Source: Gammaproteobacteria bacterium (lineage in GTDB: Bacteria > Pseudomonadota > Gammaproteobacteria > Steroidobacterales > Foliamicaceae). From it: a stretch of DNA of 64,000 nucleotides. A program made the translations under genes and the position numbers. Below, in pieces: positions 3,090-56,841 of this stretch (position 1 is the stretch's first letter; each line of letters starts with the position of its first letter). The stretch lies in NCBI GenBank assembly GCA_009844425.1, contig VYBN01000033.1:146263-210262 (forward strand). The letters run 5' to 3'. The notes beneath the pieces were generated by a model that did no database searches, was not told the origin of the DNA, and saw only the letters and a list, made by a program, of their open reading frames with translations.

Positions 3090-3737
3090 TCAGTCATCCG
3101 CTTCCGGACGCGGACGGTGGCGGAACAGGCGTGCGATGACGCCGAACCGGGGATGGTCGAAGTAGTGGACTTCCCCCAGCAGGAGACGGCGCCGTTCCCG
3201 GATTCGATACTCGCCGCCGCCCTCTTCAACCGCGGGCATGCGCAGGTCGAGCGCAAGATGCACGAACCGTTCCTCTTCCAGTGACGCCAGTCCGCTGAAG
3301 GGCAGCGCCCCGGCCGCAAGCGTGGACAGCCGCAACGGTATCGGTTCGCCGGTCCACTGCGCCGGCATGGCCCAGGCGAAGTGCGCCAGTGGCCGGTACC
3401 CGGCGCTGCGGCGCATCGACACCCAGATGCCGTCCAGGGCGAATTGCGCACGGGTCAGCGCCAGAAGACCGGCCGGCGGCCGGGGTGTCGCGGGATCCGA
3501 GTCCGGCAGTTCCAAAGGCGCGGGCCAAACCTCGGCCGGCGGCAGATCCGGGGACGCATGAATGAGGTCCTCGGTGCTTTCCTCCGGGTCCAGTTGCAGG
3601 AAAACGATCATCTCCAGGGCGATCCGGAAGTCGTCATCCTGCGCCTGCACGGGTCCCGCAAGCAGGACGCACGCCGCGAACTGAAGCAGGGCGACGACCG
3701 CCAGGGCAGGGGATCCATGCGGCAGGGGACGAGGCAC
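3090..3737 (-). CDS. CsiV-like periplasmic protein (DUF2803-type), conserved neighbour downstream of mfd
   Basis: C-terminal HYFDHPRFGVIARL block and a signal-like N-terminus ending in ...AGPVQAQ. The track ORF (to 3869) would overlap mfd by 128 nt. The in-frame GTG at 3737, just after the mfd stop, is taken as the start. The start is uncertain. Confidence 0.45.
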   Translation of the reverse strand: MPRPLPHGSPALAVVALLQFAACVLLAGPVQAQDDDFRIALEMIVFLQLDPEESTEDLIHASPDLPPAEVWPAPLELPDSDPATPRPPAGLLALTRAQFALDGIWVSMRRSAGYRPLAHFAWAMPAQWTGEPIPLRLSTLAAGALPFSGLASLEEERFVHLALDLRMPAVEEGGGEYRIRERRRLLLGEVHYFDHPRFGVIARLFRHRPRPEADD

Positions 3738-22947: not shown

Positions 22948-23609
22948 TCCGCCCCGATTGGCCGGCGCCCCGGCCGGTTCGCGCCGCCAGTACGCTGCGC
23001 GGCCTCGAGCCCCGCGAGGCATGGCGCTTGCTGGAGATCCCGGGCGAACCGCGCTGGCTCTCGCAGATGCACGGCCGGGACGTGGTTTGCGCCGACGCGG
23101 ACTGGACCGAAGTGCAGGCGGATGGCTGCGTGTCGTATACCCCTGGGCGCGCGTGCATGCTGCGCACGGCCGACTGCCTGCCGATCCTGTTTTGCGATGC
23201 CGCCGGAAGCCGCGTCGGAGCGGCCCACGCGGGCTGGCGCGGCCTGGCTTCGGGCGTGATCGAGGCGACCGTGGCCTCATTGTGCGGGGGCGGCTCCGGG
23301 GTGATCGACCCGCGGAACCTGATGGCCTGGATCGGTCCCGGCATCGGCGGTCCCGCGTACGAGGTCGGCGCTGACGTTTTTTGGGCCATTTCCACGAGTA
23401 CGCCCGATGCGGCGCAGTTCTTTACCCGAAGGGACAGCACCCACTGGCTCCTCGACCTGGCCGGCCTTGCGCGGCATCAGCTGCGCAGGCTCGGAATCAT
23501 GGACATCTACGGCGCCCACTGGTGCACGTTCTCGGACCCCGCCCGGTTCCATTCATATCGCCGCGATGGCAGCTCGGCCCGCCACGCCACATTCATCTGG
23601 CTGCTGTAG
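22935..23609 (+). CDS. pgeF: Peptidoglycan editing factor PgeF (YfiH / laccase-domain protein)
   Basis: The block DCLPILFCD...AAHAGWRG and the C-terminal SYRRDG. The GTG 22935 start overlaps the rluD stop. The conserved rluD-pgeF-clpB order supports the call. Confidence 0.8.
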
Positions 23610-23715
23610 CCGTCTCTTTGCTTCCTTCTTCTGGGAGTATTGGAGGCAGGGATGCCGGAACAAGCTCCATGGATGGATTTATGCGTCTCCCGGAAGAAGG
23701 AAGCAAAGAGACGGC
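23609..23715 (+). repeat. Nested-hairpin element, copy A (29-bp outer stem, inner GGGA-loop hairpin, GGATG...GCGT tract)
   Basis: Left arm GCCGTCTCTTTGCTTCCTTCTTCTGGGAG (23609-23637) pairs with right arm 23687-23715 through 28 Watson-Crick pairs and 1 G-T. The inner hairpin is GGCA-GGGA-TGCC (23645-23656). The core is shared with copies at 48154-48264 and 48302-48407. Confidence 0.8.
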
Positions 23716-23759
23716 GGAATCGAAGCGCCGCGCCAATGCCGATGAGATAGGCGAACCTG

Positions 23760-23787
23760 GTTGAATTCGCGCCGCCGGACGCCATAT
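23760..23787 (+). promoter_or_regulatory. Candidate sigma-32 (RpoH) heat-shock promoter of clpB
   Basis: GTTGAAT (23760-23766), a 13-nt spacer, then CGCCATAT (23780-23787). The E. coli consensus is CTTGAAA-N13-15-CCCCATnT. The -10 element ends only 7 nt before the clpB ATG, which would imply a leaderless or near-leaderless mRNA. Confidence 0.3.
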
Positions 23788-23794
23788 CGAAGTC

Positions 23795-26386
23795 ATGGAC
23801 CAATTCACCAATCGTGTGCGGGAAGCGCTGTCCGAGGCGCGCGCGGCCGCCGTGGATGCCGACCACCAGTTCCTCGAACCGCTGCACGTCCTTCGGGCGC
23901 TGCTGGAGCAGGACGGAGGCGCCGTGCTGCCGCTCCTGCGCCGCGCGGGGGCCGACACAGGAAAGCTGCAGGCCGATCTGGCCGAAGCGCATGAGCGCAT
24001 GCCCAGCGTCCAGGGGCAGGAGGGCGATCTGCACGCTTCGGCGGCGCTCGCACGGGTACTCAACCTGGCCGGCAAGCTGGCGCGCAAGCGCGGCGATACG
24101 CTGGTCAGCAGCGAGATCCTGCTGCTGGCCGCGGCCGGCGACAGGGGCGAGCACGCGCGGCTGATTAAGGACGCCGGCTTGGACCCGGCGCGACTGGAGG
24201 CGGCAATCGACCAGGTTCGCGGCGGAGAAACCGTCGACGAGGCGGGTGCGGAGGAACTGCGGGGCGCGCTGGAGAAATACGCGATCGACCTGACCCGCAG
24301 CGCCGAGGAAGGCAAGCTCGATCCCATCATCGGCCGCGACGAGGAGATTCGCCGCACGATGCACATCCTGCAACGGCGGACCAAGAACAACCCGGTGCTG
24401 ATCGGGGAACCGGGCGTCGGCAAGACCGCGGTGGTCGAAGGGCTGGCGCAGCGTATCGCCAACAGGGAGGTGCCCGAAGGGCTCAGGAACAAGCGCCTGC
24501 TGGCCCTGGATCTCGGCGCGATGATCGCGGGCGCCAAGTACCGCGGCGAGTTCGAGGAGCGGCTGAAGGCGGTTCTCAAGGAACTGGCGAAGCAGGAAGG
24601 CCGGATCATCCTGTTTATCGACGAGCTGCATACGCTGGTCGGCGCCGGCAAGGCCGAGGGCGCAATGGACGCCGGCAACATGCTCAAACCCGCCCTGGCG
24701 CGCGGCGAATTGCATTGCGTGGGCGCAACGACTCTTGACGAGTACCGCAAGAACCTGGAGAAGGACGGCGCGCTGGAGCGGCGCTTTCAGAAGGTGCTGA
24801 TCGAAGAACCCAGCGTGGAGGACACAATCGCCATCCTGCGCGGCCTGAAGGAGCGCTACGAAGTGCATCATGGCGTCACGATTTCGGACGCCGCCATAGT
24901 GGCCGCGTCCACTCTCTCCCAGCGTTACATCACCGATCGCAAGTTGCCGGACAAGGCCATCGACCTGATCGACGAGGCCGCGGCCCGCATACGCCTGCAG
25001 ATGGACTCCAAGCCGGAAGCCATCGACCGGCTGGAACGGCGGCTCATCCAGTTGAAGATCGAACGCGAGGCCCTGAGCAAGGACGAGGACGAGGGAGCGC
25101 GGCAGCGGCTGGCGGACCTCGATGTCGAGATTGCCGAGCGGGAAGGGCAACACGCCGAACTGTCGGAGACGTGGAAGACGGAAAAGGCCCGCACCCAGGA
25201 AGCCGCCGGACTCAAGGAGCAGCTGGAACAGGCCCGCCTGGCGCTGGAGAAGGCAGGCCGCGGGCAGGACCTGCAGCGCATGTCCGAGCTTCAGTACGGC
25301 GTCATCCCGGAGCTGGAACGCAAGCTTGAGGACGCGCAGGAAAACGAGCCGGAACACGCGGCCGACGCCATGCTCTCCAGCCGCGTCGGGGAAGCCGACA
25401 TCGCCGCCGTCGTGGCCCGCGCCACGGGCATTCCGGTATCCCGCATGCTGACTGGCGAGCGCGAGCGGCTCAACCGCATGGAGGATGAACTGCATCGCCG
25501 CCTGATCGGCCAGGACGAAGCGGTGCGTGCGGTGTCCCGGGCGATCCGCCGTTCCCGCGCCGGGCTCGCCGACCCGGACCGGCCTACCGGCTCGTTCCTG
25601 TTCCTGGGTCCCACGGGCGTGGGCAAGACCGAGTTGTGCAAGGCCCTGGCGGAGTTCCTGTTCGACAGCGAGGGCGCGATGGTGCGCATCGACATGTCGG
25701 AGTACATGGAGAAGCACGCCGTATCAAGGCTGGTCGGCGCGCCGCCCGGCTATATCGGCTACGACGAGGGCGGCCAGCTCACGGAGGCGGTGCGCCGCCG
25801 CCCGTATTCCGTCGTGCTTCTGGACGAACTCGAAAAGGCGCATCCGGACGCACTCAATATCCTGCTGCAATTACTGGACGAGGGCCGCCTGACCGACGGT
25901 CAGGGCCGAACGGTGGATTTCCGCAATACGGTCGTGATCATGACCTCCAATCTGGCATCGGACCAGATCCGTTCGCTGGCCGGGTCCGGGCACGAGGAGA
26001 TCAGGAAAGCCGTGATGGACTCGCTGCGTTCGCACTTTCGCCCGGAATTTCTCAACCGCATCGATGACATCGTCGTGTTCAGGCCGCTGTCACGCGAGGA
26101 GATTCGCGCGATCGTGGACCTGCAGCTCGATCGCCTCGCGGTTCGGCTGGCGGAGCAGGATATGGCGCTTGAGGTCAACGATGCCCTGAAGTTGCGCCTG
26201 TCCAATCTCGGTTACGACCCGGCTTACGGCGCCCGCCCGCTGAAACGGCTAATCTGCGACTACGTGGAGAACCCTCTGGCGGAATGGCTGCTGTCGGCGG
26301 ACGCCAGGCCGGGCGAGACGCTCGAAGTGGCCGACAAGGACGGGGAAACCGTCATTTCCGTGCGTGATCGCCCCAAAGCCGCGTAA
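23795..26386 (+). CDS. clpB: ATP-dependent chaperone / disaggregase ClpB
   Basis: Two AAA+ modules ([18 protein letters not shown]) with a coiled-coil middle domain. 863 aa. Confidence 0.97.
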
Positions 26387-26399
26387 GATTCGGCCCTCG

Positions 26400-29159
26400 A
26401 TGAAGCATCTGACAAAGACGTTCGTGCTGATGCTGCTGGTCCTGCCGGCAGGCGCCGTCGCGGAGGATCCACTGGGCATCTCCGCCGGCGGGGACGGGTT
26501 CGAATACGTCACGAGCGTGGAAGGCATTCACGAGTACTCGCTGCCCAATGGGCTGCAGGTGTTGCTGTTTCCCGACAACGCGCAGGCGCGGGTGACCGTC
26601 AACGTCACTTACCGCGTCGGCTCCATGCACGAAAACTACGGCGAAACCGGGATGGCGCACCTGCTGGAACACCTGCTGTTCAAGGGCACGCCGGACAATC
26701 CCGACATACCGAAGTCGTTCAATGAGCGCGGCATGGGATTCAACGGCACCACCTGGCTTGACCGGACCAACTACTTCGAGAGTTTCGAACCGACCGACGA
26801 CAACCTGGAATGGGCCTTGCGCATGGAAGCTGACCGCATGGTCAATTCGTTCATCGCCTACGAAGACCTGCAATCCGAATTTTCGGTCGTGCGCAATGAA
26901 ATGGAGCGGGGCGAGAACAGCCCGGGCCGGATGCTGGATCAGCGGGTCCGCGCGGCGGCCTTCGAATGGCACAACTACGGGAACTCGACGATCGGCGCGC
27001 GCTCCGACGTCGAGGGCGTGGACATCGGCCGCCTGCAGGCCTTCTACCGGACTTACTACCAGCCGGACAACGCCACGCTCATCGTGGCCGGCGATTTCGA
27101 TCCCCGCGAGGCCACCGCTATCATTGCCGACTCGTTCGGTACGATTCCGGCCGCGGAGCGGGAGCTGCCTCGCATCTATACCGTCGAGCCGGTCCAGGAC
27201 GGCGAGCGCCTGGTGACCTTGCGGCGGGTCGGAAAGCAGAGCCTGGTCATGGCCGCCTATCACATTCCTGCCGGGGCCACGAAGGAAAACACGGCCCTTG
27301 ACGCGGTTTCGCGCATCCTGGCCGATTCAAGCCGCGGGCGCCTGTACCGCAAGATGATCGAACCGGGCATCGCCGCCGGCGCAGGCGCGCGCGCCGATGC
27401 TTTTGCCTTTCCGGGGCTGTTCACGCTGAACGCAACCGTCCCGGTGGACGGCGACACGCAGGAGGTGCTTGACGCGCTTCTGGACGTTTCCGAGGGCGTT
27501 CCCGCGGAGCCGATCACCGAGGAGGAACTCGAGTGGGCGCGGCTTGCCATGGTTTCCAGCTACGACAAAGCCATAAAGAACGTCGGCTCCCTGGCGCGCA
27601 TACTTTCCGAGAGCATCGCCGCGGGAGACTGGCGGTACCTGTTTCTTTACAAGGACCAACTGGACGCGCTGAGCGTCGAAGACCTCAACGCGGCCGCGGC
27701 GAAACACTTCAAGCGCAGCAATCGCACCGCCGGCATGTTCATCCCCACCGAGAGCCCGGACCGGGCCGCGGTGGCGTCCCGGAGCGACCAGAGCGAAGAG
27801 CTGGCGTCCCTGGCGGGAAGACAGTCGGTGAGCGCGGGCGAGGAATTCGTTCCCAGCCCGGACAACATCGCGGCCCGCACCGTCAGGCAGGAGCTGGCCG
27901 GCGGCGGCTCGCTGTGGGCGATCGAGAAGAAATCGCGCGGGGACAGGATCATCGTTTCGCTGAACCTGTTCTTCGGCAGCGAACAGAGTCTGGCAGGAAA
28001 ACACGGCCTGGCCGGATACGCCGCCGGGCAGTTGCAGCGCGGCACCACGCGCTACACGCGCGACGAACTGGCCACCGAATGGGACCGCCTGAAGAGCGAT
28101 CTCAACCTCAGGGGCGGTGGGCAGAGAATCAACGCCTCGCTGCAGACGGACGAGGCCAACTTCGAGGAAGCGCTGGCCTTGATGGCGCATGTGCTGCGCG
28201 AGCCGGTCTTCGATCCCGATCAGCTGGAGGAAGCGAAACGCTCCGCACTGGCGAGTATTGCGGGAGCCCGCGGTCAGCCGCAAAGCGTCGTTTCCATTTC
28301 CCTGTCCAAGGCGCTGAGTCCCTACCCACCGGACCATTTCCGATACGCCATGGATCTGGACGAGCAGGAGGAAATGATCCGGAACATGAACCGGGACGCC
28401 CTGGCCGAATTCTGGAATTCCCATATCGGATACAGGGGAGCGATCGCACTCGCCGTGGGCAACTTCGATACCGCGGCGCTGGCCGGGCGCCTTGACGAAC
28501 TTTTCGGCGACTGGGAGGCGGCCGTGGATTACCTGCCGGCGCCCAACCGGCACCATCCGGTGCAGGCGCGCGAGGAATGGCTGGACACGCCGGACAAGGC
28601 CAACGGGTTCATGGTTGCCGCGCTGCCTGTTCCGCTCAACGTTCGCGATGCCGATTACGCGCCGCTGGTCATCGGCACGCGCATTTTCGGCGGCGGGGGC
28701 TTGAGCAACCGCCTGATCAATCGCCTGCGCCAGAAAGAGGGCTGGTCCTACGGCGCGGGCGGCGGCATGAACGCGTCGGAGCGTTCAGGTGACGACAGCG
28801 GCGCTTTATTCATTCAGGCGATCGCGGCCCCGGAGAACCTCTCGAAGGTCCGGGGCGGGGCGCTGGAGGAATTGCAGCGCGTCATTGATGACGGTTTCAC
28901 CCCCGAGGAGCTTCAGGACGCCGTGGACGGCGCCATTTCGGGCGACCTGAACTCCTGGTCAAGCGACGCAGCCCTGACCGGCATCCTCAGTTCCGGTGCG
29001 GAACACGGACTGGATGCGCTGTGGTACGGCGCACTGCATGAGCAGTACAGGGCGCTGACGCTGGACGACGTCAACGAGACCTTCCGCAAGTACTACGCGG
29101 CCGACGATTTCCTTATCTTCATCGGCGGCGACAAGGCCAGGGCGGAAGACACCGGCTAG
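26400..29159 (+). CDS. M16 (pitrilysin/insulinase) family zinc metallopeptidase, secreted, about 919 aa
   Basis: Signal peptide MKHLTKTFVLMLLVLPAGAVA and the inverted zinc motif HLLEHLLFKG (HxxEH). The length is consistent with a duplicated M16 half-domain architecture. Confidence 0.85.
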   Translation: MKHLTKTFVLMLLVLPAGAVAEDPLGISAGGDGFEYVTSVEGIHEYSLPNGLQVLLFPDNAQARVTVNVTYRVGSMHENYGETGMAHLLEHLLFKGTPDNPDIPKSFNERGMGFNGTTWLDRTNYFESFEPTDDNLEWALRMEADRMVNSFIAYEDLQSEFSVVRNEMERGENSPGRMLDQRVRAAAFEWHNYGNSTIGARSDVEGVDIGRLQAFYRTYYQPDNATLIVAGDFDPREATAIIADSFGTIPAAERELPRIYTVEPVQDGERLVTLRRVGKQSLVMAAYHIPAGATKENTALDAVSRILADSSRGRLYRKMIEPGIAAGAGARADAFAFPGLFTLNATVPVDGDTQEVLDALLDVSEGVPAEPITEEELEWARLAMVSSYDKAIKNVGSLARILSESIAAGDWRYLFLYKDQLDALSVEDLNAAAAKHFKRSNRTAGMFIPTESPDRAAVASRSDQSEELASLAGRQSVSAGEEFVPSPDNIAARTVRQELAGGGSLWAIEKKSRGDRIIVSLNLFFGSEQSLAGKHGLAGYAAGQLQRGTTRYTRDELATEWDRLKSDLNLRGGGQRINASLQTDEANFEEALALMAHVLREPVFDPDQLEEAKRSALASIAGARGQPQSVVSISLSKALSPYPPDHFRYAMDLDEQEEMIRNMNRDALAEFWNSHIGYRGAIALAVGNFDTAALAGRLDELFGDWEAAVDYLPAPNRHHPVQAREEWLDTPDKANGFMVAALPVPLNVRDADYAPLVIGTRIFGGGGLSNRLINRLRQKEGWSYGAGGGMNASERSGDDSGALFIQAIAAPENLSKVRGGALEELQRVIDDGFTPEELQDAVDGAISGDLNSWSSDAALTGILSSGAEHGLDALWYGALHEQYRALTLDDVNETFRKYYAADDFLIFIGGDKARAEDTG

Positions 29160-29983
29160 AGTTGCGCGATGCCGTGCCCGGTGCGGGTGCGGCGCGTGCG
29201 CCGGGTCTCCCGGCGGATTTCGAGATTGGCGGCGCGCACCTGCGGATCGACGTAACCGCGCGGGTGGTCCAGGTGCAGGCAGGTTACCCGGTGGCGAATG
29301 CGCTTGCCGCGGACCCCCGCGTTCTCCAGGCGCTCGCCCAGCTCCCGGTCCTCTCCGCCGTAGCCCATCCGCTCGTCGAAACCGTTTGCCGCGAGGATGT
29401 CGGCCTTCCAGCCGGATGCGTTGTGACCGTTCCAGCCGGCGGTGGCCGGGGATATGCGGTCCAGCACCGCCCCGAAACCTGTTCCCGCAGTGAGTTTGAG
29501 AAGCTTGTAGGTCGGCGGCATGCCGCGGCCGCGCAGCCATGAGGCGGAGAAGCAGCGTCCCGTTGCGATGTCTTCCGGCCGGATGTTGTGGGACAGTCCC
29601 AGCGGCAATCGGAGCAGGCCGCCCGAAAGGAAACGCCGCGGTTCGGCGAGGTCGAGATGACGGGACACGAATTCGGGCTGCGGAATGCAGTCCCCGTCGG
29701 TGAAAATCAGGTATTCGCCCCGCGCCCTGGCGATGGCCTTGTTCAGGATCCGGCACTTGCGAAAGCCGCGATCGTCCTGCAGGACGTGCTCGATCTCAAG
29801 CCCCGTGCTTCTGCGGGCGCTGCGGATGACTTCGGCCGTCTCGTCGCCGGAGCCGTCGTCGGCCACCACCACCTCGAATTCCCGGCAGGTCTGATGGGCG
29901 AAGCCGCAAAGCGTCTTTTCCAGCCATTCGGGCTGCCGGTAGGTGCTGAAAACGACCGTTGCGTCAAACGGCCGTTTGCTCAT
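29156..29983 (-). CDS. Glycosyltransferase family 2 protein
   Basis: VVADDGSGDET and a DxD-type block FTDGDCIP. Confidence 0.8.
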   Translation of the reverse strand: MSKRPFDATVVFSTYRQPEWLEKTLCGFAHQTCREFEVVVADDGSGDETAEVIRSARRSTGLEIEHVLQDDRGFRKCRILNKAIARARGEYLIFTDGDCIPQPEFVSRHLDLAEPRRFLSGGLLRLPLGLSHNIRPEDIATGRCFSASWLRGRGMPPTYKLLKLTAGTGFGAVLDRISPATAGWNGHNASGWKADILAANGFDERMGYGGEDRELGERLENAGVRGKRIRHRVTCLHLDHPRGYVDPQVRAANLEIRRETRRTRRTRTGHGIAQL

Positions 29984-37240: not shown

Positions 37241-39913
37241 ATGACGGCCGGCGCGCGACCGCTGGCGGGGCATACGCCGATGATGCAGCAGTACCTGCGC
37301 ATCAAGGCAAAGCACCCCGATGCCCTGCTGTTCTACCGCATGGGCGATTTCTACGAGATGTTTTACGGCGACGCCGAGCGTGCGGCCGTGCTGCTGGACA
37401 TCGTTCTGACCACGCGCGGACAGTCGAACGGCGAAGCGATTCCCATGGCCGGCGTGCCGGCGCATTCGGCCGATTCGTACATCGCCCGGCTGGCGCAAAT
37501 GGGCGAGTCCATAGCGATTTGCGAGCAGATCGGCCGCCCCACGCCTTCGGGCGGTCCGGTAAAGCGCGAGGTCGTGCGGCTGGTGACTCCGGGCACGCTG
37601 ACCGAGGAAGCCCTGCTCGACAGCAGTTCCGAGAACCTGGTGGCGGCCCTGTACGGGAAGGACGGCGGTTACGGGCTGGCCTGGATGGAGCTGAGTTCCG
37701 GCAGTTTTTCGATCACGGAATGCCCCGGTCTGGAAGAGCTTGAGGGCGAACTGCAACGATTGCGGCCGGCCGAATTGCTGGTCGGCGAGGGAACGCGGCT
37801 GCCCGAGGCGCTGCCCGGCCGGCCCGCGGTTCATGAGCGGAGGAACTGGCAATTCAGCGCCGCCTCCGCGCGGCGTGCGCTTCAGGACCAGTTCCGCGTG
37901 CATAACCTCGATGGTTTCGGCGTGGAGGGCATGGACCGGGGGATCGCCGCCGCCGGTTGCCTGCTGGACTACGTCAGGGACACGCAGCGCGGCGCCTTGC
38001 CTCACGTGCGCGCGCTCAACGTGGAGCGGCCCGGCGACGCGCTGCTGATGGATGCCGCCACGCGGCGCAACCTTGAACTGGACCGCTCGCTTTCGGGGCG
38101 GGACGAATACACGCTGGCCGGCGTCGTCGATCGCTGCGCCACCCCCATGGGCAGCCGGCTCCTTCGGCGCTGGATCCATCGGCCCCTGCGTTCCCACGAG
38201 GTCTTGCGGCTCAGGTATCAGGCCCTGGACGAATTGCGCGGCGAGCAGGAGGGGTGGCGGGAGTCGATCCGGGAAGTCGGCGATCTCGAGCGGGTGCTGG
38301 CGCGACTGGCCATCCGCACGGCCCGCCCGCGCGACCTGGAGCAGCTGCGGTCCGCCCTGAAGTCCGCGCCGGCGATCCGCGAGCGGCTAACGGCGCTGGA
38401 CGCGCCTCTCCTGCAAACCCTGGCGGAGCGCATGGAAACGCCGCCCGATGGATTGCGCCTGCTGGCGGAAGCGCTGGTCGAGCATCCCGCCCCCAGGATT
38501 CGCGACGGCGAGGTGATCGCCGCCGGATACAGCGCGGAGCTGGATGAGTTGCGCGAAGTCAGCAGCAATGCCGACGCCGCGCTGCAGGACCTGGAGAAGG
38601 AAGAACGCGAAAGCAGCGGCATCGCCAACCTGAAGCTGGGCTATAACCGGGTGCACGGCTACTACATCGAGCTTCGCCGCAGCCAGGCGGAGGAAGCGCC
38701 CGAGCACTACATCCGCCGCCAGACCCTGAAACACTCCGAGCGCTATATCACTCCGGAACTCAAGCGCTTCGAGCACCGGGTCCTGGGCGCGCGCGAACGC
38801 GCCCAGGAACTGGAGGTGAGGCTGTACGAGGAATTGCTGGAGAAGCTGTCCCGCTGGCTCGCGGTCTGGCAGGACCTGGCGACCGCCGTGGCCGAGACCG
38901 ACGTGCTGGTCAACCTGGCCGCCCGCTCGCTGGAGCTGGGCTACGCGAGACCGGAGCTTGTCGATCGGCCGGGGATCAGGCTGAGGGCCAGCCGCCACCC
39001 TGTCGTCGAGCGCGCGCTGGATTCCGAGTTCATCGCCAACGACCTGGCGCTGGACGACGACACCCGCATGCTGATCGTGACCGGCCCCAATATGGGCGGC
39101 AAGTCCACCTACATGCGCCAGGTCGCGCTGATCGTGATCCTTGCGCACATCGGCAGCTTCGTTCCCGCGGCCGAGGCCGAGATCGGGCCGCTGGACCGCA
39201 TATTCACGCGCATCGGCGCGGGCGACGACCTGGCCGGCGGACGTTCCACCTTCATGGTGGAAATGACCGAAACGGCGAGCATCCTGCACAATGCCACCGG
39301 ACAGAGCCTGATGCTGATGGACGAGGTGGGCCGCGGCACCAGCACCTACGACGGCCTTTCGCTGGCCTGGGCGGCGGCCGGCTACATCGCCGAGCGCCTG
39401 CGCAGCTTCACCCTGTTTGCGACCCACTACTTCGAATTGACCGCGCTGGCCGAAACCGCGACGGCATGCGCAAACGTCCACCTGGACGCCGTCGAGCATG
39501 CCGGAACGCTGGTGTTCCTGTATTCCGTGCGCGACGGCCCGGCGGATCGCAGTTACGGGCTTCAGGTAGCGGCATTGGCCGGTGTTCCCAGGCAGGTCAT
39601 CGCGTCGGCAAGAGGGATGCTGGAGGACCTGGAGCAGCGCTCAGGCCGGTTGATCGAGCGCGGGCAGGCGCAATTGCCGCTCACACTCCCTGGGAGCGAG
39701 GGCGTCCCGCCCTCGGTGAAGGAGCTTGCCGGGACGGAGGACATCCCGCCCTCCACGAACGCGGAACGCCTTCGCTCCCGGACGCTTCATTCAAGCGCGG
39801 AGCAATTGCTGGCCGGGGTGGATCCCGAACAGCTCAGCCCGCGCGAGGCGCTGGACCTGCTGTTCGAACTGAAGGCACGAAGCGGGGGAGAAGATGACCG
39901 AGCGGGAAATTAG
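37241..39913 (+). CDS. mutS: DNA mismatch repair protein MutS
   Basis: The N-terminal block [18 protein letters not shown], Walker [10 protein letters not shown], and [12 protein letters not shown]. Confidence 0.95.
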
Positions 39914-48128: not shown

Positions 48129-48153
48129 GCCGCCTCTCTCTCGCTAGCCCTTC

Positions 48154-48264
48154 GGTTTCCTGTGTATGCCCTCATCCCGGAAACGCCGGCAAGCACATCC
48201 TTGTGGGCTCTGTGGAGGCGTCCTGCCTCCACAAGTTCCGGGATGAGGGCATACACAGGAAACC
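48154..48264 (-). repeat. Nested-hairpin element, copy B (orientation defined by the GGA-motif strand, here minus)
   Basis: Perfect 29-bp stem: GGTTTCCTGTGTATGCCCTCATCCCGGAA (48154-48182) pairs with 48236-48264. Inner hairpin TGTGGAGGC-GTCCT-GCCTCCACA lies at 48211-48233. The reverse complement of the interior aligns with copies A and C (TGGAGGCAGG..GAGCCC..GGATG..GCGT). Confidence 0.8.
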
Positions 48265-48301
48265 TTTAGCTGGCGCAATTCCCAGCATCGCGCAAGCTAA
48301 A

Positions 48302-48407
48302 GCCCAGTGCTTATCCCTGCCTCGTGGGAGCGTCGGCGGCAGGAGCCGCCGCCGAGCCCCATGGATGGGTTCATGCGTCTCTCACGAGGCAGGGATAAGC
48401 ACTGGGC
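48302..48407 (+). repeat. Nested-hairpin element, copy C
   Basis: The 29-bp stem GCCCAGTGCTTATCCCTGCCTCGTGGGAG (48302-48330) pairs with 48379-48407 through 28 Watson-Crick pairs and 1 G-T. Inner hairpin CGGCGGC-AGGA-GCCGCCG lies at 48334-48351. The tract GAGCCCCATGGATGGGTTCATGCGT follows. Confidence 0.8.
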
Positions 48408-48434
48408 GAGGAAGCAGGCTTGCGGAGAAGCGGG

Positions 48435-50615
48435 CTAGAGCATATAGCGGGCGCGAATGCCAACCTGCCTGGGCTGATTCGGAAACCGGATAAGCGGGTT
48501 GTAGAAGAACACCGTTTCCGCGGCATCTTCATCCGTGAGGTTGCTGGCATATAGCGAAATCGTCCAGTCATCGCTGTACAGCCCGATGCTGGCATCGGCG
48601 AAAAAGCGCGAATCGGATTCGCCGGTCAGATCATTGAAGATATCGAACGACCGAGGGCCCATGGCATTCCCGGAAAGCCGCGCGCGCAGCCATCTGCCAT
48701 TGGCCAGAGGCTGGTTGAAGTCCACGCTGGCCGTGAAGTTGTAGTCGGACACATACGGCATCGTGTTGCCCACCGTTTGGGCCAGATCAAGCCCGGTGTA
48801 CGGGTCGATGCCGCTATTTTTCGTTATTTCGTTATCGATCACGCCAAAGCCGAATCGAAAATCAACGGCATCAGTGGCGCGCAGGACAAGCTCGGCTTCA
48901 AATCCGCTGATTTCCACTTCCTGCACATTCAGGTTTTCCAGCGTGAAGGTAGTGGAGTTGAACCGCGTGAACTGGGCATTGTCCTGGGTAATGTAAAAGG
49001 CCGCCCCGTTCAATGTCAGGCGATCATCCAGCCACGAGGTCTTCACGCCCGCTTCAAAGGTGTCGGACACTTCCTTCCCGTAGAAGCGCGTGACAGTGGG
49101 GGCATATTCGTTGAATCCGCCGGACCGGAATCCGCGCGACCAGGTAAACGAGGCCAGCGCGTTGTCCGCAAACGACCATGCGGCGGACACTTTCGGCTGC
49201 AGTTCGCTGAACGTGTCCTCCACCCTCGAGTCTTCCGTGAAACGAACCCGCTCATCGATCGCCTTGCGCTCCTCCTCGTCGTAACGCAGCGCCAGCGTCA
49301 ACTCCAGAGCATCCGACAGGTCATAGTTGACCTGCCCGAAAAACGCGAACGCGGAAGTGTCCTGGTTGGTTCGTTCACCGTCCGTGGGAAACACGCTAAC
49401 CCACAAATCCGCCGGATCGTGGTCGTTACTGTTAACGAGCAGGGGCTTGGCGTCGGCCAGGGTCACGCGGGCGGTGCCCGGATCGTCAAAGATCTGATCG
49501 AATTGAACGATCCGGTCGCGGGTCTCGAAAAACGCGCCGGCAAGCCAGCGCAGCTGTGCATCGTCGGGCGAACTGATCCGCGCTTCCAGGTTGAGGGAAT
49601 CCTCTTCGATCAGGTTGATCTGGGTGCTCGGGAAGAAGAAATTGGCGTCCACGGCCGGCAGGCTGGTGAAATCCGCATCCGAGAACTGGTCGTCGCGCGA
49701 GTGGTTCAGTCCGGCTATGGCTGTCAGCAGGCCGCCTCCCGGCAGCTCCCGGTCGTATTTCGCCGATACCGTCCAGATCTCCTGTTCGTCGATTCCAACC
49801 GCGTTCTGAGTTGGCCCGATGGAAAAGTCATTCAACTGGCCGAGGGTGATGAAGGACATGTAGTTCGTTCCCTGGGTGGTGTCCCGATAGCGGCCGTGCA
49901 GCGCAATGCTCGATGCCTCGTCGATGTCTACCGCGAGGAGGCCCCGCACGCCAGCGGCGCCATCGACATAGTCCACCTTCTCATCAAGGAAGCCGTTGGT
50001 GATCAGGCCATCGAAATCCCGGTAGTCGGCGGAAAGGCGAAAGCGAACCGAGTTGCCCGCAAGCGGTCCTCCAATGGAAGCCGCAATGCGCCGGTCGTTG
50101 CCTTCCCCGAGGGACAGATCGACATAGCCTTCCAATTCCTCGCCGGGCTGCTTCGTTATGATGTTGATGGCGCCGCCGATGGCGTTTTTGCCGTAGAGCG
50201 CGCCCTGCGGGCCGCGCAGCACCTCGATGCGCTCAATCTGGTCCAGGTCCTGGTTGATGAATTCGAGATTGGGCACGGTCACGCCATCAACCACGAAGGC
50301 GATCGGCGCTTCGCCCACCTGCGGAGTGATCAGCCCGCGGATAGTTACAAAACTCAGTCCCTGCCGGAAGTTGGTCGAAACGTGTAGATTAGGCACCAGC
50401 ACCGAAAAGTCCTTGATGTTGCTGATTCGCGCAACCTCGACAAGGTCGGAGTCAATTACAGTAACTGACTCGGGAATTTCCTGAAGGCTTTCCGAGCGTT
50501 TGCGCGCTGTCACTACTATCTCTTCGAGAGTCTGCTGAGCCAGCGCGGGCTCCAGGATCAATGCCAAGGCAATTCCTGCTGCAGCCAGCTTCAAGACTTT
50601 GCTGATCCGCTTCAT
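48435..50615 (-). CDS. TonB-dependent outer-membrane receptor
   Basis: Signal peptide, plug-domain blocks (EEIVVTARKR, IERIEVLRGPQGALYGKNAIGGAINI) and a long beta-barrel with aromatic-rich strands. Confidence 0.9.
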   Translation of the reverse strand: MKRISKVLKLAAAGIALALILEPALAQQTLEEIVVTARKRSESLQEIPESVTVIDSDLVEVARISNIKDFSVLVPNLHVSTNFRQGLSFVTIRGLITPQVGEAPIAFVVDGVTVPNLEFINQDLDQIERIEVLRGPQGALYGKNAIGGAINIITKQPGEELEGYVDLSLGEGNDRRIAASIGGPLAGNSVRFRLSADYRDFDGLITNGFLDEKVDYVDGAAGVRGLLAVDIDEASSIALHGRYRDTTQGTNYMSFITLGQLNDFSIGPTQNAVGIDEQEIWTVSAKYDRELPGGGLLTAIAGLNHSRDDQFSDADFTSLPAVDANFFFPSTQINLIEEDSLNLEARISSPDDAQLRWLAGAFFETRDRIVQFDQIFDDPGTARVTLADAKPLLVNSNDHDPADLWVSVFPTDGERTNQDTSAFAFFGQVNYDLSDALELTLALRYDEEERKAIDERVRFTEDSRVEDTFSELQPKVSAAWSFADNALASFTWSRGFRSGGFNEYAPTVTRFYGKEVSDTFEAGVKTSWLDDRLTLNGAAFYITQDNAQFTRFNSTTFTLENLNVQEVEISGFEAELVLRATDAVDFRFGFGVIDNEITKNSGIDPYTGLDLAQTVGNTMPYVSDYNFTASVDFNQPLANGRWLRARLSGNAMGPRSFDIFNDLTGESDSRFFADASIGLYSDDWTISLYASNLTDEDAAETVFFYNPLIRFPNQPRQVGIRARYML

Positions 50616-54638: not shown

Positions 54639-55781
54639 ATGAGCCTGCTGAGCGAGCAACCCAGTTTCACGCTGGGCGTGGAGGAGGAGTACCTTCTGGT
54701 TGACGCCGAAACGCTGGAGCTTTCGGTCGATCCGCCCGAGGGTTTCATGCCCGCCTGCCGGGAGCAGGTGACGGGCCAGGTGGTCAATGAATTGATGCGC
54801 GCCCAGGTGGAGACGGCCACAAAGGTGTGCGAGAGTGTCGCGGAGGTGCGCCGGGAACTGACCCGGCAGCGCCGCGAAATCAATGCAGTGGCCGAGCAGT
54901 TCGGGATGCGGATTATCGCCGCTTCCACGCATCCGTCGGCGCTGTGGCGCGACCAGAAGCAGACCCCGTCGCAGCGCTATGTGACCCTGCAGGAGGAAAT
55001 GCAGGCTACCGCCAGACGCATGCTGATTTGCGGCATGCACGTGCACGTGGGGATCGAGGACAAGGACCTGCGCGTGGACCTGATGAACCAGTTCCGCTAT
55101 TTCCTGCCCCATCTGCTCGCGCTCAGCAGTTCCTCGCCGTTCTGGGAGGGTGACGACACCGGCCTGAGCAGCTTTCGGCTGACCATTTTCTCGGGCTTGC
55201 CGCGCACCGGCCTTCCGGAAGAGTTCAACGGCTGGAGCGACTACGAGCGCCACATCGAGACGCTTGTGCAGGCCAATGTCATCGAGGATTCCTCGATGAT
55301 CTGGTGGGACGTACGGCCCAGCGCGCGCTTTCCCACGCTGGAGACGCGCATTTTCGACCTCTGCACTTTCGTGGAGGACACCGTATGCATGACGGCCTTC
55401 ACCGTCTGCCTGATTCGCATGCTGTGGCGCCTGCGGGTCAGCAACAGCCGCTGGCGCAGCTACAACCTGTTGCTGCTGGAGGAAAACCGCTGGCGGGCGA
55501 TGCGCTACGGGCCCACCGACAGCCTGCTGGACTTCGGCAGGGGCGAGATGGTGCCGTTTTCCGACTTGCTGGACGAGCTGATCACGATGATTCGCCACGA
55601 CGCGGAGTTCTTTGACTGCAAGCAGGAAATCGAACACGCGCGCACGATTCTCGAGCGGGGCACCAGCGCCAGCCTGCAACTGGCCGCCTATCGCCGGGCG
55701 CTGGACGAAGGCGCGAGCGAACAGGAAGCGCTGCGCGAGGTTGTGCGCTTCCTGGTCGAGGCCACGATGGATGGCTGCTGA
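54639..55781 (+). CDS. ybdK: Carboxylate-amine ligase YbdK (glutamate--cysteine ligase family 2)
   Basis: FTLGVEEEYLLVD, GMHVHVG and WWDVRP blocks. Confidence 0.85.
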   Translation: MSLLSEQPSFTLGVEEEYLLVDAETLELSVDPPEGFMPACREQVTGQVVNELMRAQVETATKVCESVAEVRRELTRQRREINAVAEQFGMRIIAASTHPSALWRDQKQTPSQRYVTLQEEMQATARRMLICGMHVHVGIEDKDLRVDLMNQFRYFLPHLLALSSSSPFWEGDDTGLSSFRLTIFSGLPRTGLPEEFNGWSDYERHIETLVQANVIEDSSMIWWDVRPSARFPTLETRIFDLCTFVEDTVCMTAFTVCLIRMLWRLRVSNSRWRSYNLLLLEENRWRAMRYGPTDSLLDFGRGEMVPFSDLLDELITMIRHDAEFFDCKQEIEHARTILERGTSASLQLAAYRRALDEGASEQEALREVVRFLVEATMDGC

Positions 55782-56841
55782 TTCGCCATTGTTTCCCGCC
55801 GCCTGCCGCGTTTCGGTGGCGCCGATGATGCAGCGCACCGACCGGCACTGCCGCTACTTCCACCGGCTGCTCGCGCCGGAGGCCGGCCTGTATACGGAAA
55901 TGGTCCATGCGCAGGCCGTCGTCCATTCGACCGACGGTCGCTTCCTGCACCATCATCCCGCTGAGCGGCCCCTCGCCCTGCAACTCGGAGGCAGCGAACC
56001 CGAAACGCTGGCCGAAGCGACGGCGCTTGCCACGCAGGCGGGGATCGACGAGATCAACCTGAACGTGGGCTGCCCCAGTTCCCGAGTCAAGGCGGGCCGT
56101 TTCGGCGCCTGCCTGATGCATGAACCGGAACGCGTGGCCGATTGCGTACGCGCGATGCGCGGAGAGGCCGCGGGCCGGCCCGTAACGGTCAAGACCCGCA
56201 TCGGGACCAATCACCGGCAGGAGTTCTCGCATCTCCTGGCGTTCGCGCGGGCGATGCAGGAAGCAGGGGTCGCGGCCCTGATCGTGCACGCGCGCATCGC
56301 CGTGCTTGAGGGTTTGTCTCCGAAAGAGAACCGCAACGTGCCGCCACTGCGCTACGAGTTCGTTTACCGGCTGAAGCAGGCCATGCCGGAGTTGCCCATC
56401 GTCATCAACGGCGGTATATGCGACAACAGCGAAATCGCGTCGCACCTGCAATGCGTGGATGGTGTGATGCTGGGCCGCGCCGCCTATTCCAATCCCTGGT
56501 TACTCACAGCGCTGTCCGGCGCGCCGCGGCAGCCGAAGACCCGCGCCGGGGTGGTTGAGGCGATGGTGGAGTACGCCCGGCGCGAGGAGCAGAGCGGAGT
56601 GAGACTGGGTGCAATCACGCGTCACATGGCCGGCCTGTATTCGGGCAGACCCGGCGCCGGCGACTGGCGGCGGTCACTGGCGCGGCATGCGGCGGCGCCC
56701 GCGAACGAAGCAAGCGTACTGCTCGACTGCGTTCCCGATCGGTTGCGCTACGCCGCTCCTGGGAGCGAAGGCGTCTCGCCTTCGTGGAGGGCGGGACGCC
56801 CTCCTTCCCGGGTCGAGGACCAGGTGGCCTTTTCCGGCTAG
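55771..56841 (+). CDS. dusA: tRNA-dihydrouridine(20/20a) synthase DusA
   Basis: VAPMMQRTDRHCRYFHRLL, NLNVGCPS and VKTRIG blocks. ATG 55771 overlaps the ybdK stop by 11 nt. Confidence 0.85.
   Translation: MAADSPLFPAACRVSVAPMMQRTDRHCRYFHRLLAPEAGLYTEMVHAQAVVHSTDGRFLHHHPAERPLALQLGGSEPETLAEATALATQAGIDEINLNVGCPSSRVKAGRFGACLMHEPERVADCVRAMRGEAAGRPVTVKTRIGTNHRQEFSHLLAFARAMQEAGVAALIVHARIAVLEGLSPKENRNVPPLRYEFVYRLKQAMPELPIVINGGICDNSEIASHLQCVDGVMLGRAAYSNPWLLTALSGAPRQPKTRAGVVEAMVEYARREEQSGVRLGAITRHMAGLYSGRPGAGDWRRSLARHAAAPANEASVLLDCVPDRLRYAAPGSEGVSPSWRAGRPPSRVEDQVAFSG

Follow-up and report, generated by a model that had tools for sequence, protein, structure and literature searches.

A TwoAYGGAY-like structured repeat in uncultured Gammaproteobacteria: fold, family and filled and empty insertion sites

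The Rfam family TwoAYGGAY (RF01731) dates from 2010, with members in gut metagenomes, Clostridiales and Gammaproteobacteria (Weinberg et al., PMC2864571), and its loops were proposed as CsrA sites by Gardner and Eldai in 2014 (PMC4333381). A preprint of September 2026 reported tens to about 200 copies per Pseudomonas genome and 68% divergent doublets, described upstream 5-6-mers of the form GMTBT(T) and a "mobile-element-like expansion", and repeated the CsrA/Rsm proposal; mobility was inferred there from copy-number variation only, and the function was left unresolved (10.64898/2026.09.22.753630). The present analysis concerns three copies, hereafter called A, B and C, of a repeat of this kind in a 64,000-nucleotide stretch of contig VYBN01000033.1 (positions 146,263 to 210,262; assembly GCA_009844425.1) from a gammaproteobacterium of the Foliamicaceae. 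This whole stretch is called the window, and copy A lies in it between pgeF and clpB. The copies belong to a large family whose members were gained and lost between closely related genomes. With a probability of roughly 0.6, they would be a non-coding, high-copy, mobile structured repeat, selfish and recognised by its fold, whose sense hairpin displays a bipartite site of the CsrA type.

Fold of the window copies and relation to TwoAYGGAY

Copies A, B and C were the three longest inverted repeats returned by an inverted-repeat search of the window. Their arms of 29 nt, 97-100% complementary, enclose 49, 53 and 48 nt, respectively, and in each element, about 107 nt long, an outer stem of 29 bp encloses a conserved core of two hairpins. 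RNA folding energies were -66, -84 and -87 kcal/mol for A, B and C; relative to dinucleotide shuffles, the z-scores ranged from -10 to -14. In all three, the best drawing of hairpin 2 is a 3-bp stem with the hexaloop A(U/A)GGAU: copy A has the stem UCC/GGA and the loop AUGGAU, copy B has CAC/GUG and AAGGAU, and copy C has CCC/GGG and AUGGAU. The hairpin 1 loops of A, B and C are AGGGAU, AGGAC and AGGA, respectively. The coordinates and sequences given for the three copies in the initial annotation of this DNA proved exact, as did its placing of the start of copy A on the last base of the pgeF stop codon (the G of the TAG at 23607-23609). Its count of 15/29 identical arm positions between A and C was reproduced, and all 14 left-arm differences between them are matched by a changed partner. 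The arm of B had been called essentially unrelated; the A-B identity of 14/29 is in fact about equal to that of A and C, and that of B and C is 7/29.

Related genomes were sampled by scanning one genome per species with the core pattern GGCAGG..AGCYCCAWGGATG..GCGT, which gave at least 110 loci; these sampled matches carry L numbers, and the sequence taken around family loci, in 8-kb windows, amounts to about 0.9 Mb. A covariance model was built from 89 distinct family copies, and pairs were counted in the same alignment. Applied to the 64 kb, this model matched exactly A, B and C, in keeping with the three copies first annotated, and the related genomes turned out to hold a large family: at least 171 cores were found in the sampled sequence with a hidden Markov model (HMM) of the core only, and the covariance-model count was similar, with recovery also of subtypes that the core pattern could not match. 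Most loci came from the metagenome-assembled genomes (MAGs) of uncultured Gammaproteobacteria OZ243929.1, JAPOTY01 ("CAR4_bin_12"), JAPYNE01, CBDATM01, OZ220729.1, COS2_bin_9, RHO1_bin_71 and one Candidatus Foliamicus, and a few from Stutzerimonas kirkiae, Natronospirillum, Cellvibrionaceae, Alteromonas confluentis, Aeromonadaceae and Stenotrophomonas. The versions in Stutzerimonas, Natronospirillum, Cellvibrionaceae, Alteromonas and Aeromonadaceae are the more distant ones. Going by sample and MAG labels, the host clade, the relatives of Candidatus Foliamicus, is probably sponge-associated. Copy C had no blastn match among 72,556 plasmids.

In the alignment of 89 copies all 29 pairs of the basal stem change on both sides, and covariation extends to five of the seven pairs of hairpin 1 and to one of the three pairs of hairpin 2, its middle pair (C-G in 78 copies versus U-A in 10). 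The basal stem is paired in 98.5% of cells and the entire structure in 97.5%, against 72% in a shuffled control and 44-52% when the partners were slid; the copies counted were chosen for having the stem, which builds part of the pairing percentage in and leaves the number of double changes unaffected. The fold is therefore under constraint, as had been proposed from the three window copies. Stem length was measured at 164 HMM cores, found independently of the stem: contiguous stems of 29 bp were the most frequent (46), followed by 30 bp (27), 31 bp (11), 28 bp (10) and 27 bp (6). A stem of exactly 29 bp, which had been presented as a shared property of the element, holds for A, B and C and gives way in the family to a range of 27-32 bp with its mode at 29. 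In S. kirkiae and Natronospirillum the arms have 29 positions, and a 3x3 internal loop follows the first 5-6 pairs of the stem. The 5' arm is always rich in pyrimidines, with about 5% A; it usually starts with GCC and ends with GGGAG, and the innermost stem pairs are usually GGGAG/CUCCC; the arms are composed of units of G plus a Y run. A BLAST search of the arms against the window and all loci, directed at the suggestion that the arms might have targets, matched only the arms of other elements and so gave no targets.

The most conserved feature of the family is the pair of GGA loops about 22 nt apart, also among copies taken without GGA-based selection, and the two-GGA geometry pointed out in the initial annotation stands. 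Each of the 128 full copies has at least two GGA in its core (128/128), mostly 21-23 nt apart. Copies that were not chosen by pattern add to the range of hairpin 2 stems (CCC/GGG, UAC/GUA, CAC/GUG and GCC/GGC), with loops that are always A(N)GGAY or AGGAU, and some of their hairpin 1 loops have the canonical AUGGAU; the loops of hairpin 1 across the family are AUGGAU, AAGGAU, AGGGAU, AGGAU and AGGA. Stem mismatches on the core-sense strand comprised 41 of G·U type versus 17 of A·C type (p = 0.002), in a count that treats both types alike as mismatches. Since the arms of a perfect palindrome read alike on either strand, the asymmetry goes with the orientation of the core, and it points to a putative single-stranded sense form, either RNA or single-stranded DNA (ssDNA).

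Copy A aligned end to end with RF01731 (model positions 1-168, 32.6 bits, E about 8e-4, gathering score 43), although the repeat had not been recognised as a described or Rfam family. The architecture that the two share is specific. The basal stem of copy A lies on the model's basal stem of 6+19+1+4 pairs, and the model consensus also has ..uugCGUCA; GGCAGGGAUGCC falls on the first CAuGGAUG hairpin, CCAUGGAUGG on the second, and the GCGUC of copy A on the CGUCA of the model. A short variant in L045 scored 29.1 bits on the correct strand. At gathering scores, Rfam reported only tRNAs and a thiamine pyrophosphate (TPP) riboswitch in the window and 18 loci. The family is treated here as a putative divergent, sub-threshold relative of TwoAYGGAY; since it falls short of the score criterion, it is not a formal Rfam member. 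Close pairs of cores were divergent in 23 cases, convergent in 2 and tandem in 16, B and C being a divergent doublet; hairpin-to-hairpin spacers in doublets were mostly 26-61 nt, and the median gap between core matches was 91 nt. The ratio of 23:2 matches the 68% divergent doublets of Pseudomonas TwoAYGGAY.

Several other identities were considered and rejected. No T-run lies 3' of A, B or C and a terminator scan found none at the elements, which agrees with the earlier statement that the copies, lacking a U-tract, are not classical intrinsic terminators; a sigma-70 promoter scan around the window copies gave nothing relevant. Matches to miRNA precursors at an E-value threshold in Rfam were generic long-hairpin matches on both strands. 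CRISPR-like repeats, retron msr/msd, riboswitches and ribozymes were also set aside. A further match of the family covariance model at 39693-39778 (22 bits, and 18 bits on the opposite strand) is a nested GC-rich hairpin, GGGAGCGAGGG...CCTTCGCTCCC, inside an open reading frame (ORF) of 890 aa at 37241-39913, and probably has no relation to the family.

Filled and empty sites

The pgeF ORF (PF02578, PgeF/YfiH family) lies in the usual bamD / rluD-pgeF-clpB neighbourhood, with clpB starting at 23795. The four closest PgeF homologues, at 83-88% identity, end in ..WLDPPG* and the window PgeF in ..WLL*; the gap between pgeF and clpB is 30 nt on the contigs of these four relatives versus 185 nt in the window. 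Alignment to the relatives places an insertion of 146 nt at 23604-23749, between ..TGG CTG and GAC CCG, with limits uncertain by 3-5 nt (CTG/GGCTG microhomology). The new pgeF stop codon is made up of the element's TA and the first G of the arm, the last four codons have been removed, and the old end codons persist, decayed, at 23750-23764. The host GGCTG overlaps the 5'-flank consensus of the element, and an identical GGCTGCTGTA occurs in L037. The insertion lies 11 nt upstream of GTTGAAT-N13-CGCCATAT (23760-23787), which lies just upstream of the clpB ATG, is found in all relatives and was left intact. By its match to the sigma-32 consensus it looks like a heat-shock promoter, and in the relatives its -35 element overlaps the pgeF stop (GGT TGA A). 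Insofar as the insertion lies upstream of a sigma-32-like promoter that the relatives share, the position of copy A beside clpB has no visible regulatory meaning.

Conserved flanks extend the element beyond the hairpin, with ..GCYGCYGTA or GCGCCAGCTAAA on the 5' side and GGAATCGAAGCGCC or GAGG.. on the 3' side. The parts of the three window copies are as follows.

23604..23749, plus strand: entire inserted unit of copy A, 146 nt, comprising 5' CTGTA, the hairpin and a 34-nt 3' tail GGAATCGAAGCGCCGCGCCAATGCCGATGAGATA; missing in four relatives
23609..23637, plus strand: left arm of copy A, 29 nt, pyrimidine-rich (repeat search, fold)
23645..23656, plus strand: hairpin 1 of copy A, GGC-AGGGAU-GCC (fold, RF01731 alignment; hairpin 1 covaries across the family)
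23666..23677, plus strand: hairpin 2 of copy A, UCC-AUGGAU-GGA, with an AYGGAY hexaloop (RF01731 alignment; the middle pair covaries)
23683..23715, plus strand: GCGU junction and right arm (23687-23715) of copy A; GCGUC aligns to the RF01731 consensus
23716..23729, plus strand: conserved 3' flank of copy A, GGAATCGAAGCGCC, common to further copies of its subtype (L097, L093, L035, L071, L007 and L109)
23750..23764, plus strand: relic of the original C-terminal codons and stop of pgeF, GGCGAACCTGGTTGA; relatives have GACCCGCCCGGTTGA
48133..48153, minus strand: 3' flank of copy B, GAAGGGCTAGCGAGAGAGAGG in B orientation; part of the inserted unit, missing in L015
48154..48264, minus strand: hairpin of copy B, 111 nt, arms 48236-48264 and 48154-48182
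48233-48211, minus strand: hairpin 1 within copy B, loop AGGAC
48205-48194, minus strand: hairpin 2 within copy B, CAC-AAGGAU-GUG
48265..48301, no strand: 37-nt palindromic spacer of the B/C divergent doublet, made of the two 5' flanks, TTTAGCTGGCGC ... GCGCAAGCTAAA
48302..48407, plus strand: hairpin of copy C, 106 nt, arms 48302-48330 and 48379-48407; orthologous copy in L015
48331-48354, plus strand: hairpin 1 within copy C, loop AGGA
48358-48369, plus strand: hairpin 2 within copy C, CCC-AUGGAU-GGG
48408..48437, plus strand: 3' flank of copy C, GAGGAAGC...GCGGGCTAG, whose CTA is the stop of a minus-strand TonB-dependent receptor gene

The AGGGCTAG motif in the 3' flank of copy B also occurs in a B-type copy of L103.

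Further cases came from synteny of the window with CAR4_bin_12 (JAPOTY01) and OZ243929.1 at 77-90% identity. Copy B, with about 25 nt of flank, is missing from the orthologous site of CAR4_bin_12 (L015), where copy C is present. The reverse case is found in L021 of CAR4_bin_12, in which a copy (3180-3372) lies between two tandem genes and the window site is empty; this copy stands between 11-bp direct repeats, TGAGCGAAATG, that duplicate the upstream stop codon and the downstream ATG and leave both genes intact, the insertion having hit a spacer of 5 nt. A screen of syntenic loci found 17 indels, ten of them with a core match, the copy B and L021 cases included. Two indels are window sites that lack a copy carried by relatives, namely 29143-29160 (copies in L059 and L050, as a tandem triplication in L050) and 55765-55795 (copy in L021). 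Inserts measured 137-153 nt, the family unit being about 140-155 nt, the 5'/3' flanks carried along vary per insertion (5/34, 18/21, 29/16, 16/18 and 12/24 nt), and the junctions show 3-6 nt of microhomology. The elements are clearly mobile on a recent timescale and have been gained and lost between close genomes, so that the earlier impression that this was not a recent burst of miniature inverted-repeat transposable elements (MITEs) was mistaken as regards recency: copy A is missing in four relatives, copy B in the sister MAG, and more such cases were found. That the family is of the TwoAYGGAY kind and is mobile, taken jointly, is highly probable.

Target-site duplication was assessed for 99 copies, in which the longest direct repeat of the flanks followed the distribution of a mismatched-flank control. 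Two outliers were seen, 11 bp in L021 and 21 bp in L041; the former looks real, and the latter is an extra copy of the partner's arm. A classical MITE was rejected, as the arms differ at up to 22/29 positions and no fixed target-site duplication exists. The idea that arms derive from the target site was likewise discarded, the empty sites having no similarity to the arms, and circular permutation, which had been considered from flank sums of 39 nt in two insertions, was dropped when later cases summed to 34-50. Copy C and its CAR4_bin_12 orthologue have seven differences in the left arm, six of them fully compensated, and the differences in the core are precisely the three linked changes by which two widespread subtypes are told apart. 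We read this as the substitution of a paralogue, not as six compensations in place.

Neighbouring genes were called by codon usage, giving 758 genes near copies, and the copies lie singly or in doublets between housekeeping genes. For 77 copies both neighbours were called: 35 lie between convergent genes, one between divergent genes, and the tandem contexts divide into 19 sense and 22 antisense. Copies in tandem contexts stand about 40 nt past the upstream stop codon in either orientation. This placement looks like avoidance of promoters and coding sequence. Per-locus GC skew in OZ243929.1 was too noisy to relate the orientation of copies to the direction of replication. Genes for TonB-dependent receptors were the commonest neighbours, at 12 sampled loci (for example L015 3103-5283, L010 3714-5966 and, in the window, 48435-50615), which may merely reflect the size of that gene family.

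Several sampled loci carry variants of the unit. In L002 (7085-7225) and L084 (2275-2403) one or both A(N)GGAY loops are swapped for a 28-nt palindrome, CTGCCCGCCAATNGCTTGGCGGGCAG, with the outer stem and junctions kept; this palindrome may be a second small element that inserts into loops, and the identity of the loops is on this evidence not indispensable for persistence. At 4925-5235 of L026, in OZ243929.1, a larger repeat of about 310-400 nt contains the hairpin, and six other loci of that genome (L002, L019, L061, L073, L096 and L110) have similar repeats. The larger repeat ends in terminal inverted repeats of 20 bp, (C)TAGCCCGCATATTGCACCAA ... TTGGTGCAATATGCGGGCTA(G), with TTAA or CTAG on the outside, which we take to be an IS5-like target; as a whole it resembles a conventional MITE carrying a TwoAYGGAY-like unit. 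L050 (6290-6630) and L012 (1429-1797) hold cores with shortened stems in tandem arrays, with a period of about 100-107 nt, which apparently arose by slippage between CTCCCGC of the right arm and a flank upstream that resembles it. In L065 (5896-6003) and L042 (7460-7566) the conserved flanks have the opposite orientation to the core, an outcome expected of recombination between the arms, which flips the interior. The left arm of L077 (836-952) contains about 17 consecutive G, and the right arm has only 6 C to face them; this reflects either an artefact of assembly or expansion of the homopolymer.

Readings of the element

Under the reading preferred here, the element would spread as a selfish unit that is recognised by its fold, that is, by the core sequence and a stem of fixed length and not by terminal sequence, and the recognised form would be the single-stranded core-sense strand, as RNA or ssDNA. 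Copy A would have inserted into the last codons of pgeF, bringing a stop codon and leaving the clpB promoter untouched. Sense read-through of a copy would give a very stable RNA hairpin with two sites of the CsrA/RsmA type. Binding of a CsrA-family dimer would be the most likely molecular interaction of the core and might serve either the host, by titration, or the element. Hairpin 1 of copy A, CAGGGAUG, matches the type CANGGANG, which is the CsrA/RsmE recognition consensus and which the family loops fit, and copy B carries ACAAGGAUGU. Binding of CsrA to the core in vitro is possible at somewhat less than even odds, and a host-selected sponge role is doubtful. The CsrA reading is not new, having been proposed for TwoAYGGAY in 2014 (PMC4333381) and repeated in the 2026 preprint.

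A number of results weigh against the preferred reading. No mobilising enzyme came to light: all-versus-all BLASTP of the 758 genes near copies gave no recurrent transposase-like gene, and its clusters were transporter and receptor paralogues only. Neither a fixed target-site duplication nor precise termini were found among the insertions, the flank lengths differing per event. The RF01731 gathering score of 43 bits was reached by no copy in the window and 18 loci, and copies B and C and those of S. kirkiae had no RF01731 match at E<=10 or E<=1. The copies show no preferred orientation with respect to host genes and no promoter-like site was found before the window copies, so that transcription in the sense direction is not guaranteed; random orientation further argues against a strand-specific role in cis on host mRNA. 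A tblastn search with E. coli CsrA and P. aeruginosa RsmA found neither in the roughly 0.9 Mb, which is too small a test. If copy C was replaced by a paralogue, part of the covariation reflects turnover of copies. The copies that entered the covariation count had, as noted above, been chosen for their stem.

Three other explanations were weighed. The copies could be modules selected by the host for binding CsrA/RsmA, acting as a distributed CsrA sponge or placing neighbouring mRNAs under Csr control, with mobility as the mere means of distribution. The invariance of the two A(N)GGAY loops at 21-23 nt across orders, also in unselected copies, would be expected of such modules, as would the motifs just named in copies A and B and the excess of G·U-type over A·C-type mismatches on the sense strand, and the same hypothesis has been published for TwoAYGGAY (PMC4333381, 10.64898/2026.09.22.753630). 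The random orientation, the lack of an own promoter or terminator and the position of copies past stop codons either way speak against it; the L002 and L084 variants exchange their GGA loops for the palindrome and keep the outer architecture, and copy number and positions vary in close relatives in a manner more readily expected of a selfish element than of a tuned regulon. This explanation is considered unlikely. A somewhat smaller chance is given to a selfish palindrome acting at the DNA level and having no role as RNA, on which a transposase or recombinase would work in its extruded or single-stranded hairpin form in the style of IS200/IS605, RAYT or REPIN, the arms being kept complementary by hairpin-templated repair or arm copying. 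It would account for arms that are 98.5% complementary though they differ at half their positions, for cores flipped relative to their flanks in L065 and L042, for orientation that is random with respect to transcription, for doublets that recur as units at several loci of one genome, and for the lack of a fixed target-site duplication and of conserved terminal inverted repeats. It fits less well with imprecise ends, with the lack of a conserved target tetranucleotide abutting the 5' end and of any HUH- or RAYT-like gene near copies within the 8-kb windows sampled, and with arms and interior whose conservation is the reverse of that in REPINs; the wobble asymmetry calls for a strand-specific single strand, which ssDNA could supply, and is a weak objection.

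In the last alternative, the elements would have been domesticated at 3' ends and would act, in either orientation, to block transcription, to stabilise the 3' ends of mRNAs or to offer a site for RNase III, on the model of REP, Correia and ERIC repeats. This would explain why copies lie past stop codons: 35 of the 77 copies lie between convergent genes and only one between divergent genes, copies in tandem contexts follow the upstream stop by about 40 nt in both orientations, the stability of the hairpins is very high, copy A directly adjoins the pgeF stop, and the flank of copy C overlaps the receptor stop. The same placement is explained equally well by purifying selection against insertions into promoters and genes, however, and neither the missing U-tract nor the strictly conserved core, GGA loops and fixed stem length across orders would follow from a 3'-end function, which is regarded as very improbable. 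The selfish, fold-recognised repeat is retained as the preferred reading. It could be carried further, to the view that TwoAYGGAY-type elements, the short-stem form included, are a distinct structure-defined class of mobile element with a single-stranded core-sense intermediate, either RNA copied back to DNA or ssDNA. Machinery that ignores arm sequence would measure about 29 bp of helix from the two-loop core, and insertion would proceed imprecisely through microhomology, with no target duplication of fixed length. This more specific proposal is speculative and, at present, improbable.

TwoAYGGAY has been without an assigned function since 2010, and the family makes the questions of what moves it and what binds its GGA loops testable. 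It adds clean filled and empty orthologous sites, with their junctions, unit size and microhomology; a stem "ruler" of about 29 bp that is kept across several gammaproteobacterial orders with the arm sequence left free; and a strand-specific wobble bias toward a single-stranded sense form. Rfam currently misses a large branch of the TwoAYGGAY-like family. Such insertions can also rewrite gene ends, as in pgeF, which lost four codons and gained a stop supplied by the element.

Comparison with known systems

Like REP/REPIN elements, the family consists of short, non-coding, extragenic hairpins in many copies, with doublets and no target-site duplication. REPINs, however, combine conserved arms with a variable spacer, and the family combines variable arms with a conserved interior; the 8-kb windows around copies showed no RAYT gene, and there is no conserved 5' tetranucleotide. 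An assignment to REPIN/RAYT was rejected on this reversed pattern and on the lack of a recurrent transposase-like gene near copies. Correia (NEMIS) and ERIC repeats, of the MITE type and known from Neisseria and Enterobacteria, are likewise units of about 100-150 nt inserted beside genes. They are co-transcribed, and their long hairpins are cut by RNase III or RNase E with altered mRNA stability, which offers a plausible analogue for what may happen to a transcribed copy of the family; they differ in having conserved terminal inverted repeats and a TA duplication, neither of which the family has. Integron attC sites are also defined by structure, as hairpins of about 60-140 nt with variable arms that are used as single strands. 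Identity with attC was rejected, since R''/R' core sites (RYYYAAC/GTTRRRY), extrahelical bases, a cassette array and a nearby intI are all missing; the copies instead have ends GCC.../...GGC, perfect stems and a conserved interior. The CsrB/CsrC/RsmX/Y/Z sponges share with the family GGA in short hairpin loops at a spacing that a CsrA dimer can bridge. Each sponge, however, is encoded by a single-copy gene that has a promoter and terminator of its own and 5-22 sites, in contrast to two sites per unit, no promoter or terminator and many dispersed copies here.

The closest system is TwoAYGGAY itself. The family differs from it in the loop of hairpin 1, usually AGGA, AGGAU or AGGGAU versus AYGGAY, in a hairpin 2 of 3 bp, in a stem formed by one simple and nearly perfect helix (27-32 bp) whose sequence is hypervariable, and in its hosts, which are uncultured Gammaproteobacteria related to Candidatus Foliamicus. 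Pseudomonas TwoAYGGAY has three extra hairpins and a pseudoknot, which the family form appears to lack; the window copies are too short for the extra hairpins. At its 5' edge copy A has GCTGT and GCCGT, both 5-mers of the 5' repeat set of the preprint. Common to TwoAYGGAY and the family are two sequential hairpins on one basal stem of about 30 bp (seen for the family in the folds, the 89-copy consensus and the covariation), A-Y/N-GGA-Y loops, the GCGUC junction, and many copies whose number varies between relatives, with an excess of divergent doublets.

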